DNA of 18,580 nucleotides, from assembly GCA_013153275.1 (NCBI GenBank), contig JAADER010000051.1:1-18580 (forward strand). Direction: 5' to 3'. This stretch comes from Thermoproteota archaeon. GTDB taxonomy: Archaea > Thermoproteota > Thermoprotei > Thermoproteales > Thermocladiaceae. Under the pieces are notes generated by a model. It worked only from the letters and a program-made list of their open reading frames with translations. It was not told where the DNA came from and did no database searches. The first letter of the stretch is position 1, and every line of letters begins with the position of its first letter. The position numbers and the translations under genes are program-made. Below are positions 10,171 to 15,283 of the stretch, one piece after another.

Positions 10171-12648
10171 CTACCTTCTTTCAACCTCTATTCTTCTCTT
10201 AGAGTCCTCTCTAACTATCTTCAGAAGAGTCACAGGTATGTTCTGGCTAGATGCTTCAGACACGACCTGATCTATGAACTCCCTACTCTGTGAAGTAATT
10301 ATCAGCTGTGAGACAAGGCCCTGCCTTATCAAGCTGGCAGCTAGCTTAGCGAAGGACGACCTTATCGCCTCGTCGACATATGGTATAGGCTCGTCCATTA
10401 TCATGAAGCTAACATTATGATTAGCTATGACATATACCGAGAGCATGAACGCGAGAGCAAGCGTAAGCCTCTGTCCATCGCTCATTCTCGATATTGGGAC
10501 TCTTCTTCCTGATCTTATACCATAGAGAACATATTCGCTAACTATCGTTCCTAGTCTCTCTCTAACATTGAGCTCTATGCTAGCACCACTCATATCGGTA
10601 TATGGGTACATTATCTTGAAATACTGGTTCACCAGATCCCTCACCTTCTCAACCATCCTCTCTCTCAGCTCTGACTGGATACGTTTCAAGGCTCCTCGAA
10701 TAGTATTTAACATTGTTAGAAGTTTCTCTAATTTATACACTCTTTCCCTAAGTTCGTCTATAGTCTCTGTAGGTAGTGATGATAGCACCCTCTCTAGTGT
10801 TGATACTTCTATACTGAGGTTGTTCAATCTTTCTCGAACCTTGTCAAGCATCTTGTTCACCTCCTCTATCTCCTGCTCTAGTCTCCTCACCTTCTCGAGA
10901 TCTATACCTGACTCCTTGAGCTTTCCTTCTAGTTCCCTCTCCTCTCTTCTCAGTTCTTTCAATCTCTTTACTTTTCTGAGGATAGTTATCTCCCTATCTA
11001 TCTTATCTATCCTCTCCTTCACCTCATCTATGAGGGCACGTATCACCTGAGCTCTCCTCTCGAGACTTCTCCTGTTCTTGTCAACGCTCTCTAGCTTTGC
11101 TAAAACTTTACCATACATTTCTCTCATAGTCTTGAGACGAGTATAAACGTCCTCGTACTCTTCTACAAGAGGTTTAATTGCTCTCAACTTTGAGAGAACG
11201 TTCTCCAGCTCAGTTATTTTACGCCTAATCTCATCTAACTCTCTCCTAGTCGTGTCCTTCCCTATCTTTGATAGTCTATCCTCAATTTTCTTGAAAGTCT
11301 CATCATCTAGCTCTCTACCACATATGGGACATGTTCGTAAGCCTCTCCTGACGATCTCTCTGAGCACGCTCTCAACATGTAGCTCGAACTCCTCCATGCT
11401 CTGGAGCCTTTCCTTCAACTTCTCTAGCTCGCGCTGTATCTGCTCGGGAGACCCATACTTGGAGACGAGGGCTTGATACTCTCTGTAGATGTCCTCAAGC
11501 TCTTTCAATCTTCTTTCAAGGCTCCTTATCTCGGAGCTCAGCCTCTCGGCATCTATCTTCAGCTCCTCTGATAAATGTATCAGGTTCTCGATCTCCTCAT
11601 CGAACCTTGTCAGACTGTCCTCAAGCTTTCGAACAATCTCGAATATCTTCATACTAGCCTCCTCAAGATTCTGAGAAGAGATTACTAGCCTAGAAAGCTC
11701 CTCAGCCTCCTCCGTGAAGAGAAGCTCCTCAAGCTTGGATAGCAATATGTTTCTAACAAGCTCGAGCTCCACCTTTATGCTTGTCTCAGAAACATCAGGA
11801 AGATTCTTCAACTCCTCCTCAAGAAGCTCACGCTCAGCCTTCACACGCAGATACCTGACATATATGGACTCGACATCTGAGAAACGCTCGAAGAGCCTTC
11901 TACGCTCCTCAAGAAGCCTCGATAGCTTCTCAGAGAGCTCACGCTCGACCTTACGAAGCTCCTCAAGCTCCCTCTTGAAGTCCTCTAGAGCCTTCTTAGC
12001 ATTCTGAACAGAACCGTACTTCGATATTATCTCTGGAAGCTCCTTAAATGCTGATAGCTTTCTCTTCTCTCTATCAAGTATCTCCTCTATCTTTCTAACA
12101 GGTATAGACTTGTGAAGCTGCTCTATCATCTCTATACCGAAGAGCCTATCTATGACTAGCGATCTCTTGCTCGAGGTACCGTAAACGAGTCCTTCTAGTA
12201 CTCTATGTGTGACAAGCACGAATCTAGCAAAATCGTCCTCGTCGAGACGTAGAAGCTCCACCACATTTTGAAGGACCTCTCGTGGAGATGATGCAACCTT
12301 CTTCTCGTTAAGCCATAGCTCAGCTATGGTCTCTCGAGCTGAGTCACCATGCTTCTTGAGACAGCGTATCACTCTCACACGAGATGCCGAGTCAATGCTC
12401 TCAAGTGTGAGCTGTACCTTGGCCTCATTTGACTCCTCGTTTATGAGATCTATGAGCTTTGCTATTCTCTCCTTTATCTCTAGCTGTTGACCGTAGAGAG
12501 CGTACTCTACTGCTTGTGCTATGCTTGATTTTCCGGCTCCTACCTCGCCATATATGGCTACTATGCCTCTATCGAGCTCGAGCACGTGTTTTCCTCTGTA
12601 TCCTCGGAAGTTCTCTAAAATTAGTTGTTTAATTATGAACTTACTCAT
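10171..12648 (-). CDS. Rad50/SMC-like ABC ATPase with long coiled coil and central CxxC zinc hook (arcadin-4-like position in a crenactin cluster)
   Basis: 825 aa. Walker A is GEVGAGKSS (aa 34-42). About 550 aa of heptad-rich E/K/R/L sequence follows. CPIC lies at aa 440-443 (nt 11331..11320), mid-coil. The signature-like motif is MSDGQRLTLALAF and Walker B is FMIMDEP. No mre11, herA or nurA is nearby. Confidence 0.9.
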   Translation of the reverse strand: MSKFIIKQLILENFRGYRGKHVLELDRGIVAIYGEVGAGKSSIAQAVEYALYGQQLEIKERIAKLIDLINEESNEAKVQLTLESIDSASRVRVIRCLKKHGDSARETIAELWLNEKKVASSPREVLQNVVELLRLDEDDFARFVLVTHRVLEGLVYGTSSKRSLVIDRLFGIEMIEQLHKSIPVRKIEEILDREKRKLSAFKELPEIISKYGSVQNAKKALEDFKRELEELRKVERELSEKLSRLLEERRRLFERFSDVESIYVRYLRVKAERELLEEELKNLPDVSETSIKVELELVRNILLSKLEELLFTEEAEELSRLVISSQNLEEASMKIFEIVRKLEDSLTRFDEEIENLIHLSEELKIDAERLSSEIRSLERRLKELEDIYREYQALVSKYGSPEQIQRELEKLKERLQSMEEFELHVESVLREIVRRGLRTCPICGRELDDETFKKIEDRLSKIGKDTTRRELDEIRRKITELENVLSKLRAIKPLVEEYEDVYTRLKTMREMYGKVLAKLESVDKNRRSLERRAQVIRALIDEVKERIDKIDREITILRKVKRLKELRREERELEGKLKESGIDLEKVRRLEQEIEEVNKMLDKVRERLNNLSIEVSTLERVLSSLPTETIDELRERVYKLEKLLTMLNTIRGALKRIQSELRERMVEKVRDLVNQYFKIMYPYTDMSGASIELNVRERLGTIVSEYVLYGIRSGRRVPISRMSDGQRLTLALAFMLSVYVIANHNVSFMIMDEPIPYVDEAIRSSFAKLAASLIRQGLVSQLIITSQSREFIDQVVSEASSQNIPVTLLKIVREDSKRRIEVERR

Positions 12649-12823
12649 CTCCTATACTCTCAACACCGATCTCTCTGATCATGTTATAAATCATCTCCTT
12701 AACCCTTCTAGAGCCTCCCTCCTTGAAGCATCTGTAGAGCTTGACAGCGAGCTCATACGTCTCGTCGTCCGTTATCTCCTTTCTCAGGAGCTCCAGTATC
12801 ATCTTATCGATCTCTGTGCTCAT
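12641..12823 (-). CDS. 60-aa helical micro-protein, translationally coupled on both sides
   Basis: The sequence is MSTEIDKMILELLRKEITDDETYELAVKLYRCFKEGGSRRVKEMIYNMIREIGVESIGDE. Its ATG shares one base with the upstream TAA (TAATG at 12825..12821). Its stop overlaps the downstream ATG by 8 nt (ATGAGTAA). The sequence is not low-complexity and the codon style matches its neighbours. Confidence 0.55.
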   Translation of the reverse strand: MSTEIDKMILELLRKEITDDETYELAVKLYRCFKEGGSRRVKEMIYNMIREIGVESIGDE

Positions 12824-13557
12824 TATCTCACGTTCTTATTAGCCAGTATCTGGACCCATGGATTATCCTTTATGAAGTCAGGCACAGGACTAGTGTCAGA
12901 TTGTTGTTGAGCTTCCTGTCGGCTAGATGTTGCAGTGCTCTGGACCTCTCCTGTTGATATAGTGTTCTTCAGCCTCTCTATCTCTATTTTCAATCTATCT
13001 ATCACGTTCCATATGCTCTCTATCTCCTCTCTAATCTTCTCAAGCTTCTTCAAAACGTCTCCACTAGCACTATCCTGCGCCCTGTTTTTCAACTCCTCGA
13101 TCTCTCTCCTGAGTACGGATAGTTCAGAGTCTAATATTCTTCTCACAATTCTCGAGAGATCCTGCTCAAGTCTTGAGACATCTATCTCAGCTACTCTCCT
13201 ACTTATCGCTGGGCTCTGAAGAATCTCTCTTGCTTCACCTTCCTCTAGGTCAATCGCTATGACTCCTATTCCAAGCTTCTTGAGAAGCTTTCCGTCAAGT
13301 AGGTGTGCAACGTCTCTGCTTACTGCAATATACATCTTATTGTACTCGCTTCTTCTGCTTGCTAGGACTGTTATCTCTCTGTTTATCTCGTCTATGTCTG
13401 GGAGATCCTCGAATACTATTATCTTCACTAGTACTGTGTTGTCCCCCTCTCTAAGTATGAGGTGGTCGCTCTCTAGCTCCTCAATTATGAGGTTTCTCTC
13501 CTTTATCCACTTCTTGAGTATGTTTCTTGCTCTGTCTAAAGTTACTAATAGCGACAT
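12823..13557 (-). CDS. coiled-coil protein with an N-terminal alpha/beta domain (arcadin-3-like position)
   Basis: 244 aa. Residues 1-115 alternate helix and strand propensity (LVKIIVFED, KMYIAVS, GIGVIAIDLE). Residues ~120-200 are coiled coil (LSVLRREIEELKNRAQ...IDRLKIEIERLKN). A Ser/Gln/Thr-rich linker leads to the C-terminal tail PDFIKDNPWVQILANK. Confidence 0.8.
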   Translation of the reverse strand: MSLLVTLDRARNILKKWIKERNLIIEELESDHLILREGDNTVLVKIIVFEDLPDIDEINREITVLASRRSEYNKMYIAVSRDVAHLLDGKLLKKLGIGVIAIDLEEGEAREILQSPAISRRVAEIDVSRLEQDLSRIVRRILDSELSVLRREIEELKNRAQDSASGDVLKKLEKIREEIESIWNVIDRLKIEIERLKNTISTGEVQSTATSSRQEAQQQSDTSPVPDFIKDNPWVQILANKNVR

Positions 13558-14915: not shown

Positions 14916-14917
14916 GA

Positions 14918-15283
14918 TTACTCTAGGACATATTTCACAGCTACATATTCTTTACTGAAGAGCAGGTACTTCTCCTCTCCCCAGTCAACTACTGCAGGTC
15001 TGGTGAAGACCTTCTTCAAGTCTTCTGGTAACGAGTCAACTATTCTGTCTATTGCCTTGCTAAGCATGTCTATAAGGTCATTGTATGTGGACTTGTCGTA
15101 GGTCTCCAGATATATCATGTAGTGGTATCTGATCCCATTATCTACGACTATCCTCTTCGCCTTGCCCACGCTCTTCACAAGCTTCTCGGTAACACATGAT
15201 AAGACATGTCTTATAACCTTCTCCTTGCTCACGTTAGTTATGCCTTCGAGACATCTTGTAACCACATCCTCCAGCGACGCCAT
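14918..15283 (-). CDS. hypothetical 121-aa protein, first gene of the crenactin operon (arcadin-2-like position)
   Basis: The ORF ends 2 nt before the crenactin ATG (TAA tc ATG). Its ATG 15283 lies about 27 nt from the palindromic TATA, so it is leaderless. I recognise no motif. Confidence 0.7.

Follow-up and report, generated by a model that had tools for sequence, protein, structure and literature searches.

Which actin-based system does an uncultured hot-spring member of the Thermoproteales encode around its crenactin gene, and does the small gene immediately upstream of crenactin belong to it? The question is raised by a stretch of 18,580 nucleotides (nt) of contig JAADER010000051.1 (assembly GCA_013153275.1, hereafter the window), where an earlier note had read five consecutive open reading frames (ORFs) of the minus strand, between positions 10171 and 15283, as a crenactin cluster. 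Few prokaryotic relatives of the actin cytoskeleton of eukaryotes are as well characterised as crenactin and the arcadins, and of the crenactin accessory proteins the mechanism is known for arcadin-2 only. Thermoproteales carrying crenactin and arcadins have been reported to have neither FtsZ nor the Cdv division machinery (Culexarchaeia preprint). The locus very likely represents a complete Arcade (crenactin cytoskeleton) cluster with six system genes, not five: crenactin, arcadin-1, arcadin-2, arcadin-3, arcadin-4 and a gene encoding a 121-amino-acid (aa) protein of an unnamed family, which is the candidate sixth component. The Arcade cluster as such is biology known already. What is new, and of moderate interest to specialists, is the variant architecture and the unnamed family, which is coupled to crenactin in many lineages, even in those without adjacent arcadin-2, -3 and -4 genes, and which is directly testable.

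Gene content and order of the cluster

The five minus-strand ORFs are present with the coordinates and junctions given in the earlier note. From upstream to downstream, they encode the 121-aa protein (14918-15283), a 436-aa protein (13605-14915), a 244-aa protein (12823-13557), a 60-aa protein (12641-12823) and an 825-aa protein (10171-12648). The first two genes are separated by 2 nt (TAA-tc-ATG) and the second and third by 47 nt; the third and fourth overlap by 1 nt (TAATG), and the fourth and fifth overlap by 8 nt (ATGAGTAA). They are real genes and not chance ORFs: in more than 20 other genomes, homologues of each of them occur with the gene order unchanged.

The 436-aa protein is crenactin, as had been claimed. 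It scores 740.1 bits against the NCBIfam crenactin model NF053560, above the equivalog cutoff of 630, and its best match in the PDB is 4CJ7, the crenactin of Pyrobaculum calidifontis (E 5.7e-172), with 4BQL at about the same value (about 6e-172). The next PDB match after the crenactin structures is eukaryotic actin, far behind, with E about 1e-6 (7e-07). The protein is approximately 61% identical to that of P. calidifontis, the only one whose ATP-dependent assembly into F-actin-like double-helical filaments has been shown (PMC5173319).

An arcadin-1-like gene had not been evident to the earlier reading on the minus strand, its place being taken by alba. However, a gene encoding a 130-aa protein at 15788-16180 on the plus strand, just past the range read in the earlier note, matches Pfam PF18653 Arcadin_1 with E 5.3e-35 (120.2 bits, gathering cutoff 25) and the arcadin-1 structure PDB 5LY5 with E 2.1e-32. 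This gene is divergent from crenactin and lies 505 nt past the 121-aa gene, with alba in between. Alba (94 aa, 15347-15631, plus strand) matches Pfam Alba with E 5.6e-18 and NCBIfam AlbA with 123.6 bits, against a cutoff of 90.

The three genes downstream of crenactin encode arcadin-2, arcadin-3 and arcadin-4. The 244-aa protein shows NCBIfam NF053561 (Rkd2) as its best and only specific match (E 3e-15, 56.4 bits), which covers positions 24-195 of the 196 of the model. The 60-aa protein, described in the earlier note as a micro-protein, matches NF053562 (Rkd3) with E 1.6e-4 and 21.6 bits; iterated hidden Markov models (HMMs) tie it to the 56-aa genes that lie between arcadin-2 and arcadin-4 in Pyrobaculum (E about 1e-22), and its position and its start/stop overlaps are conserved. 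The 825-aa protein matches NF053563 (Rkd4) over positions 2-747 of 747, with E 2.9e-206 and 687 bits. This score is nearly five times that of the best Rad50 model (144 bits, cutoff 1000), and none of the NCBIfam Rad50 models, whose cutoffs range from 700 to 1087, exceeds 144 bits. Against these assignments weighs that arcadin-2, -3 and -4 all score under the curated equivalog cutoffs of NCBIfam (290, 90 and 860 bits, respectively), possibly because they are just 25-33% identical to the Pyrobaculum proteins. Their presumed orthology rests on best hits, conserved gene order and conserved motifs.

Crenactin and the four arcadins are thus all identified, by NCBIfam, Pfam and synteny, inside 6 kb, and at least 20 related loci show the same set. 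The layout of the earlier note, with the 121-aa protein in the arcadin-2 slot, the 244-aa protein in the arcadin-3 slot and arcadin-1 lost to alba, agrees superficially with the number of minus-strand genes (small, actin, coiled-coil, small, SMC-like), but it is practically untenable: its labels are off by one, since Rkd2, Rkd3 and Rkd4 fall on the 244-, 60- and 825-aa proteins, the C-terminal helix of arcadin-2 is found on the 244-aa protein, arcadin-1 is present on the plus strand, the slot upstream of crenactin is that of arcadin-1 by the Pyrobaculum order, and the 121-aa family has no profile similarity to arcadin-1 or arcadin-2.

The canonical Arcade order is that of 11 Pyrobaculum loci together with the description by Izore et al. 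2016, and the comparison was extended to 32 crenactin loci, obtained from a scan of one genome per species and annotated by phmmer and iterated HMMs. The 11 Pyrobaculum loci show arcadin-1, crenactin, arcadin-2, arcadin-3 and arcadin-4 on one strand. The loci of the clade of the window, which contains metagenome-assembled genomes (MAGs) of uncultured Thermoproteales ('Thermoproteaceae'), and those of Vulcanisaeta show the order thermosome, RpoK, arcadin-1 and alba (both on the opposite strand), 121-aa gene, crenactin, arcadin-2, arcadin-3 and arcadin-4. The position of arcadin-1 is identical in all of them. Alba lies between arcadin-1 and the 121-aa gene in both groups and is not at that position in Pyrobaculum; it is a conserved intervening neighbour with no known function in the system. 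Caldivirga and Thermocladium show crenactin alone. A metagenome locus scan with a narrow alignment gave four loci only, with identical architecture in all of them. In four Vulcanisaeta and Thermocladium drafts (L033, L035, L036 and L019) crenactin is split by frameshifts, and in L036 arcadin-2/3 and arcadin-4 are also split; these are most likely draft sequencing errors and not pseudogenes.

Arcadin-2 had been described as a nuclease-fold and coiled-coil protein, and its AlphaFold2 model (mean predicted local distance difference test, pLDDT, 74) agrees with this description. Residues 1-115 (13213-13557, minus strand) form an alpha/beta domain with pLDDT 79-91, followed by a coiled-coil hairpin at residues 127-201 (12955-13179), a disordered segment at residues 202-224 and a terminal helix at residues 227-241. 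This modelled architecture agrees with the one described by Izore et al. 2016 (PMC5173319). The best Foldseek match of the N-terminal domain is XisH (2OKF), with E 3.8e-5 and a target-normalised template-modelling (TM) score of 0.62, and further matches include 2INB, AF2093, splicing endonucleases, FokI and PaqCI. The model thus supports a restriction-endonuclease-like (PD-(D/E)xK) fold. The residues invariant in the whole family are E37, G38, N40, K74, Y76, D88, K93, G98 and D103, and no canonical D...(D/E)xK motif can be recognised on strands 2 and 3. Since these residues do not spell the canonical site, catalysis by arcadin-2 is doubtful.

The C-terminal helix of arcadin-2 (DFIKDNPWVQILANK, 12835-12879, minus strand) is the putative binder of the crenactin hydrophobic groove. 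Its C-terminus DNPWVQILANK aligns with DNEWVRILRSK of Pyrobaculum, and every lineage from Pyrobaculum to the window keeps the motif DN-x-W-V-x-(I/V)-(L/I), while the linker that precedes the helix varies both in length and in sequence. The 17 C-terminal residues of P. calidifontis arcadin-2 form a helix whose tryptophan enters the hydrophobic groove of crenactin, with a dissociation constant of 31 nM; this helix competes with the D-loop and depolymerises crenactin filaments (PMC5173319, Izore et al. 2016).

Arcadin-4 is a Rad50-derived ATPase of the ATP-binding cassette (ABC) type with a hook, in agreement with the earlier note, which had seen in it a Rad50-like protein in the arcadin-4 position. 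The window protein contains a Walker A motif (GEVGAGKS) at residue 34 (12526-12549), a central CPIC, followed by glycine, at residue 440 (11320-11331), an SDGQR signature at residue 723 (10468-10482) and a Walker B motif (FMIMDEP) at residue 748 (10387-10407), all encoded on the minus strand. Walker A, the single mid-molecule CPxC hook and the SDGQR signature are found in all 24 arcadin-4 orthologues scanned and the Walker B pattern (hhhhDEP) in 22 of the 24. By its sequence, the CPxC hook is a putative zinc site. In a published tree arcadin-4 is nested inside Rad50 (PMC9389158). No Mre11-like gene was found in the cluster by Pfam and ORF annotation, the neighbours of arcadin-4 being arcadin-2 and arcadin-3. 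Because of the coiled coils in both proteins, the iterated HMMs of arcadin-2 and of arcadin-4 came to match each other's sequences, and their extended hit lists were not used.

Seven Pyrobaculum loci (L021, L025, L026, L028, L029, L030 and L037) contain a second SMC-like protein of approximately 600-613 aa, encoded on the opposite strand about 2.5-5 kb downstream of arcadin-4, which matches the arcadin-4 HMM with E values from 1e-114 to 1e-137. This protein, which may have been retained close to the Arcade cluster in Pyrobaculum, is possibly a paralogue of arcadin-4 or a different protein related to Rad50/SMC.

The close linkage of these last three genes, seen in the window, extends to its relatives. 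In every locus of the window clade the arcadin-2/-3 and arcadin-3/-4 junctions lie between -8 and +8 nt, and because they stay within this range the three genes are inferred to be translationally coupled and their products to share a complex.

A family of small proteins linked to crenactin

The 121-aa gene is the flanking gene for which the proposed homology to the arcadins failed: the 244-, 60- and 825-aa proteins match arcadins and the 121-aa protein does not, yet it is linked to crenactin. In at least seven lineages, a gene of its family immediately precedes crenactin and shares its strand. In the window clade, Vulcanisaeta, L042 and L052 the gene precedes crenactin in a full cluster. L040 shows a family gene beside alba and a crenactin fragment, and in L050 the family gene is followed by crenactin and then by arcadin-1. 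In L044 (5001-6691) the family gene and crenactin form a pair to which arcadin-2/3/4 are not adjacent, and in L046 (5001-6653) the pair has no arcadin and no alba nearby. At the level of gene order, the 121-aa gene and crenactin thus behave as a minimal conserved unit in L044 and L046. With 74-79% identity to those of the window and of Vulcanisaeta, the crenactins of L042, L044 and L046 are genuine. The gap between the two genes ranges from 1 to 6 nt in 10 loci of the window clade and Vulcanisaeta, and in L042, L044, L046, L050 and L052 the two genes overlap by up to 8 nt or lie up to 14 nt apart.

Across the paired lineages, crenactin is 74-92% identical and the 121-aa protein 21-47%. In the same comparisons, identities of 47, 38, 40 and 30% for the 121-aa protein correspond to 50, 47, 37 and 28% for arcadin-2, with crenactin at 92-77%, and the rate of divergence of the 121-aa protein resembles that of arcadin-2.

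The family is small and unnamed. A word-indexed search of 5.8 billion clusters gave six proteins, and when 1.84 billion representatives were searched exhaustively with an HMM, 16 members were obtained, all of 77-121 aa; the named members are all annotated as 'hypothetical protein' and belong to Vulcanisaeta, Caldivirga, 'Crenarchaeota' and 'Thermoprotei'. The window protein has no match in Pfam or NCBIfam, none of the 18 family members has a Pfam match, the RsfS family included, and sequence searches of the PDB with the single protein and with the family profile gave no match. A literature search found no mention of 'arcadin-5', nor of 'arcade cluster' combined with Vulcanisaeta. A diverged paralogue of arcadin-1 or arcadin-2 was discarded, with hhalign probabilities of 0.3% and 0.4%, respectively. 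A dPPR10 match (E 1.9e-8) is an artefact, being the sum of nine individually insignificant repeat matches.

The AlphaFold2 model of the 121-aa protein has a pLDDT of 94.3 and a predicted TM score of 0.86, and because the model is confident the protein is taken as a real folded protein. It is a small globular alpha/beta protein with the topology helix, helix, strand, strand, helix, helix and three strands. The conserved residues of the family include C11, R25, C30, D48, G50, Y58, E60 and E112. Its conserved C-terminus, which the earlier note had suggested modelling together with crenactin, is a buried core beta-strand in the model and not a free tail as in arcadin-2. The nearest PDB folds in Foldseek are RsfS/iojap/MALSU1 and nucleotidyltransferases of the Pol-beta type, all of them weak matches, with E values of at least 0.015 and TM scores of about 0.5, and profilin, cofilin and gelsolin are not among the top PDB matches. 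Membership of the RsfS/iojap family was rejected, with Pfam RsfS in none of the 18 members and a weak fold match (E 0.02-0.09, TM about 0.5).

The reading given here to the 121-aa protein, from gene linkage only and with chances that appear evenly balanced, is that of a lineage-restricted dedicated cofactor of crenactin, which might bind monomers, cap filaments or assist their assembly. Several observations weigh against it. Caldivirga, including the complete genome of C. maquilingensis, has the family gene far from crenactin, beside a convergent acetyltransferase gene. L048 (2690-5336, Thermoprotei archaeon DRJ40) contains the block thermosome, RpoK, arcadin-1, alba and a 121-aa-like gene, with crenactin and arcadin-2/3/4 not adjacent, so that arcadin-1 and the small protein may persist without the actin at this locus. 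No family member was found less than 10 kb from crenactin in the 11 Pyrobaculum loci, and no Pyrobaculum is among the named members. Because the protein is not near crenactin in Pyrobaculum, whose Arcade works, it cannot be essential to crenactin in general. Caldivirga, Thermocladium and L034 likewise show no family member within 10 kb of crenactin.

The main rival to the cofactor reading is an unrelated small housekeeping protein, such as a ribosome or translation factor resembling RsfS or a protein that works with alba or chromatin, that shares the strong leaderless promoter of crenactin, among many information-processing genes, and has nothing to do with actin. The weak RsfS/iojap/MALSU1 neighbours of the model, the genes around the locus (RpoK, alba, aIF2-gamma, Rpo7, Spt4 and S24e) and the survival of the family apart from crenactin in Caldivirga and L048 speak for it. 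However, the pairing with crenactin is kept in L046 and L050, in unrelated contexts without alba and translation genes; the close spacing (8-nt overlap to 14-nt gap) is kept while protein identity falls to about 21-30%; RsfS, like every other Pfam family, gives no sequence match; and the family is seen only in lineages that also have crenactin or arcadin-1 loci. A housekeeping role is consequently regarded as rather unlikely, and the cofactor reading is kept.

The slot upstream of crenactin, which belongs to arcadin-1 because of the Pyrobaculum order, holds a further protein in L034 (9053-9940, a Guaymas 'Thermoprotei' MAG). This locus encodes there a protein of 295 aa, highly acidic at its N-terminus, which belongs neither to arcadin-1 nor to the 121-aa family, and shows arcadin-2, -3 and -4 after crenactin as usual.

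Promoters, transcription units and flanking genes

The earlier note had proposed two sub-operons, the first with a leaderless promoter and the second with its own TATA-like box in the 47-nt gap, both joined to the aIF2-gamma gene array. The first promoter is well placed. A TATA box (TTTTTTAAAATATT, 15303-15316, minus strand) has its centre some 26-27 nt before the ATG of the 121-aa gene, which is the usual archaeal distance between TATA box and start, and because of this position a leaderless 121-aa/crenactin transcript is a fair inference. Seven related loci (L001, L003 and L008-L011 are listed) show TTTTTAAAGTATTACC at the same distance, and Vulcanisaeta shows CTTATAAA at the TATA position upstream of the 121-aa gene. 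The starts of the 121-aa gene and alba, on opposite strands, are 63 nt apart (15284-15346), and the intervening segment contains one near-palindromic A/T block, AATATTTTAAAAAA/TTTTTTAAAATATT, conserved in the window clade, which may be a shared or bidirectional TATA region.

The second promoter stands in part. The TATA-like CTATATTA (13588-13595, minus strand) is present inside the gap between crenactin and arcadin-2, and all loci of the window clade and Vulcanisaeta show a gap of 36-72 nt at this point, against 2-3 nt in Pyrobaculum. Visual inspection picks out A/T-rich TATA-like stretches in several of the gaps, but their sequence is not conserved and they are unconvincing in L003 and L009. 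From these sequences an internal promoter upstream of arcadin-2 is plausible, and the wiring in two sub-operons is unproven. The alternative is a single transcription unit without a working promoter in the gap, in which all five genes would be co-transcribed from 15303-15316, possibly into aIF2-gamma. This arrangement is a real possibility, although of less than even probability. CTATATTA is centred near -34 relative to the arcadin-2 start, beyond the canonical -26/-27, and the short Pyrobaculum spacing agrees with one unit. No run of five or more T was found on the coding strand from 15283 down to 7164 (approximately 8 kb, ten genes), so that oligo-T termination signals are absent there; this point weighs against two separate units, between which read-through may occur. 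Against a single unit stand the gap kept by every window-clade and Vulcanisaeta locus and the conserved promoter element of aIF2-gamma, whose adjacency is not conserved.

That element is the TATA-like CTTATTAA (10157-10164, minus strand), located in the 39 nt between the arcadin-4 stop and the aIF2-gamma start, where a separate neighbouring gene array begins; CCCTTATTAACTC upstream of aIF2-gamma is conserved in L006 and L008. The fusion of the cluster to this array, as it had been described, does not extend to other lineages. A CstA (carbon starvation protein)/DUF7990 insertion of approximately 2.5 kb, which also contains a 115-aa ORF, lies between arcadin-4 and aIF2-gamma in the sister lineages L003 (6827-9240), L009 and L010, and no aIF2-gamma was found in the fetched flanks downstream of arcadin-4 in L011, Vulcanisaeta and Pyrobaculum. 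The adjacency is a local accident of gene order, and the aIF2-gamma/PIN/Rpo7/Spt4/S24e array is a neighbour with its own promoter, outside the Arcade system.

Within this array, a PIN_9-domain gene (8508-8912, minus strand) has 8 nt (8905-8912) in common with the end of aIF2-gamma; the pair recurs in related loci, with the 8-nt overlap in most of them. A gene encoding a 768-aa DEAD/Helicase_C/MZB (MrfA-type zinc-binding) helicase (4794-7100, plus strand) is convergent to the end of S24e and keeps its position in L006-L008. The first 1000 nt of the window have a G+C content of 0.35, against about 0.45 elsewhere, and an AT skew of -0.42; their two ORFs (131-595 and 619-849, plus strand) have no Pfam match and CRISPR-like repeats were not found there. 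No tRNA or Rfam family was found anywhere in the window.

Proposed working of the cluster and comparison with known systems

By analogy with P. calidifontis, from its biochemistry and the conserved motifs, crenactin would form F-actin-like double filaments, and the tryptophan-containing C-terminal helix of arcadin-2 would enter the hydrophobic groove of crenactin in competition with the D-loop, so that monomers would be sequestered and filaments depolymerised. The conserved start/stop overlaps suggest translational coupling of arcadin-2, -3 and -4, whose products probably form one complex. In this complex the CPxC zinc hook would hold two arcadin-4 molecules together, ATP would be turned over at the ABC heads of arcadin-4, and arcadin-2 would be the tether to crenactin. 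The 121-aa protein, judged by its gene linkage, would be made from the leaderless transcript of crenactin and be translationally coupled to it. The nuclease-type fold of arcadin-2 and the wiring of arcadin-2, -3 and -4 as a unit are, besides the 121-aa family, further results open to cheap experiments.

A different role for arcadin-2/3/4 would be that of a DNA-handling machine of the SMC/Rad50 type, mainly for segregation or organisation of chromosomes, with crenactin as track or motor in the manner of ParR/parC with ParM, and not that of a cell-shape regulator. The Rad50 ancestry of arcadin-4, with hook and ATPase motifs intact, is consistent with this role, as is the N-terminal domain of arcadin-2, modelled as a PD-(D/E)xK fold, which is a common DNA-binding scaffold. 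In addition, arcadin-2 uses the groove that ParR takes on ParM (PMC5173319), arcadin-2 is reportedly localised between segregated nucleoids (summary in the Culexarchaeia preprint), and the Thermoproteales are reported there without FtsZ and CdvABC. On the other side, no arcadin is known to bind DNA, the invariant residues of arcadin-2 do not include the canonical D...(D/E)xK signature, arcadin-2 depolymerises bulk filaments in vitro, as befits a sequestering protein more than an adaptor, and crenactin is kept in L044 and L046 without these three genes adjacent. A primary role in DNA handling is therefore considered doubtful.

A wider version of this role, taking in the whole locus, is held to be improbable and is given as speculation. 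The locus would encode a machine for handling DNA, driven by actin and equipped with an actin cofactor of its own, where arcadin-2 would be a ParR-like adaptor whose N-terminal domain binds DNA or the arcadin-4 heads and whose C-terminal helix binds crenactin, arcadin-3 and -4 would form an SMC-type complex coupling chromosomes to crenactin, and the 121-aa protein would be a new actin-binding protein, its family being the most tightly linked partner of crenactin, with no counterpart in the profilin, cofilin and gelsolin folds. If this were true, chromosomes would be coupled to crenactin filaments in archaea reported without FtsZ and Cdv.

The closest known system is the Arcade cluster of P. 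calidifontis (Ettema, Lindas & Bernander 2011; Izore et al. 2016, PMC5173319), with which the window shares all five named genes, the order of crenactin, arcadin-2, -3 and -4 on one strand, the C-terminal tryptophan helix of arcadin-2 and the hook and ATPase motifs of arcadin-4. In contrast, arcadin-1 is inverted in the window and pushed away by alba, the slot that it holds in Pyrobaculum contains the additional 121-aa gene, and crenactin and arcadin-2 are separated by 47 nt and not by 2-3 nt, so that the architecture is not of the Pyrobaculum type.

Among less closely related systems, the plasmid-segregation system ParMRC also shows an adaptor gene directly after the actin gene and an adaptor whose C-terminal helix enters the groove of the actin fold, a comparison made by Izore et al. 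(PMC5173319). However, arcadin-2 has no known centromere repeats or DNA binding and depolymerises filaments instead of capping their growing ends, and the attached SMC-like ATPase of the Arcade cluster has no equivalent in ParMRC. Actin sequesterers of the thymosin-beta4 and WH2 types resemble arcadin-2 in that a short helix, in Pyrobaculum arcadin-2 and with the same helix here, blocks polymerisation from the barbed-end groove; they have no sequence relationship with it, the orientation of the helix is reversed relative to thymosin (PMC5173319), and arcadin-2 also has a large N-terminal domain and a coiled coil.

Rad50/Mre11 (SbcCD) shares with arcadin-4 the Walker A, signature and Walker B motifs, the long coiled coils and the central CxxC hook, as well as the location beside a gene encoding a protein of nuclease-type fold. 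It differs in the partner, which in the Arcade cluster is a PD-(D/E)xK-like domain without a recognisable catalytic motif and not the Mre11 metallophosphatase, and in that the Arcade module is tied to an actin gene. Finally, RsfS/iojap/MALSU1 and the minimal nucleotidyltransferases of the Pol-beta type resemble the 121-aa protein in size and alpha/beta arrangement, with TM about 0.5 over approximately 90 residues of its model, but the 121-aa protein shows neither sequence similarity to them nor the nucleotidyltransferase motif hG[GS]...DxD.

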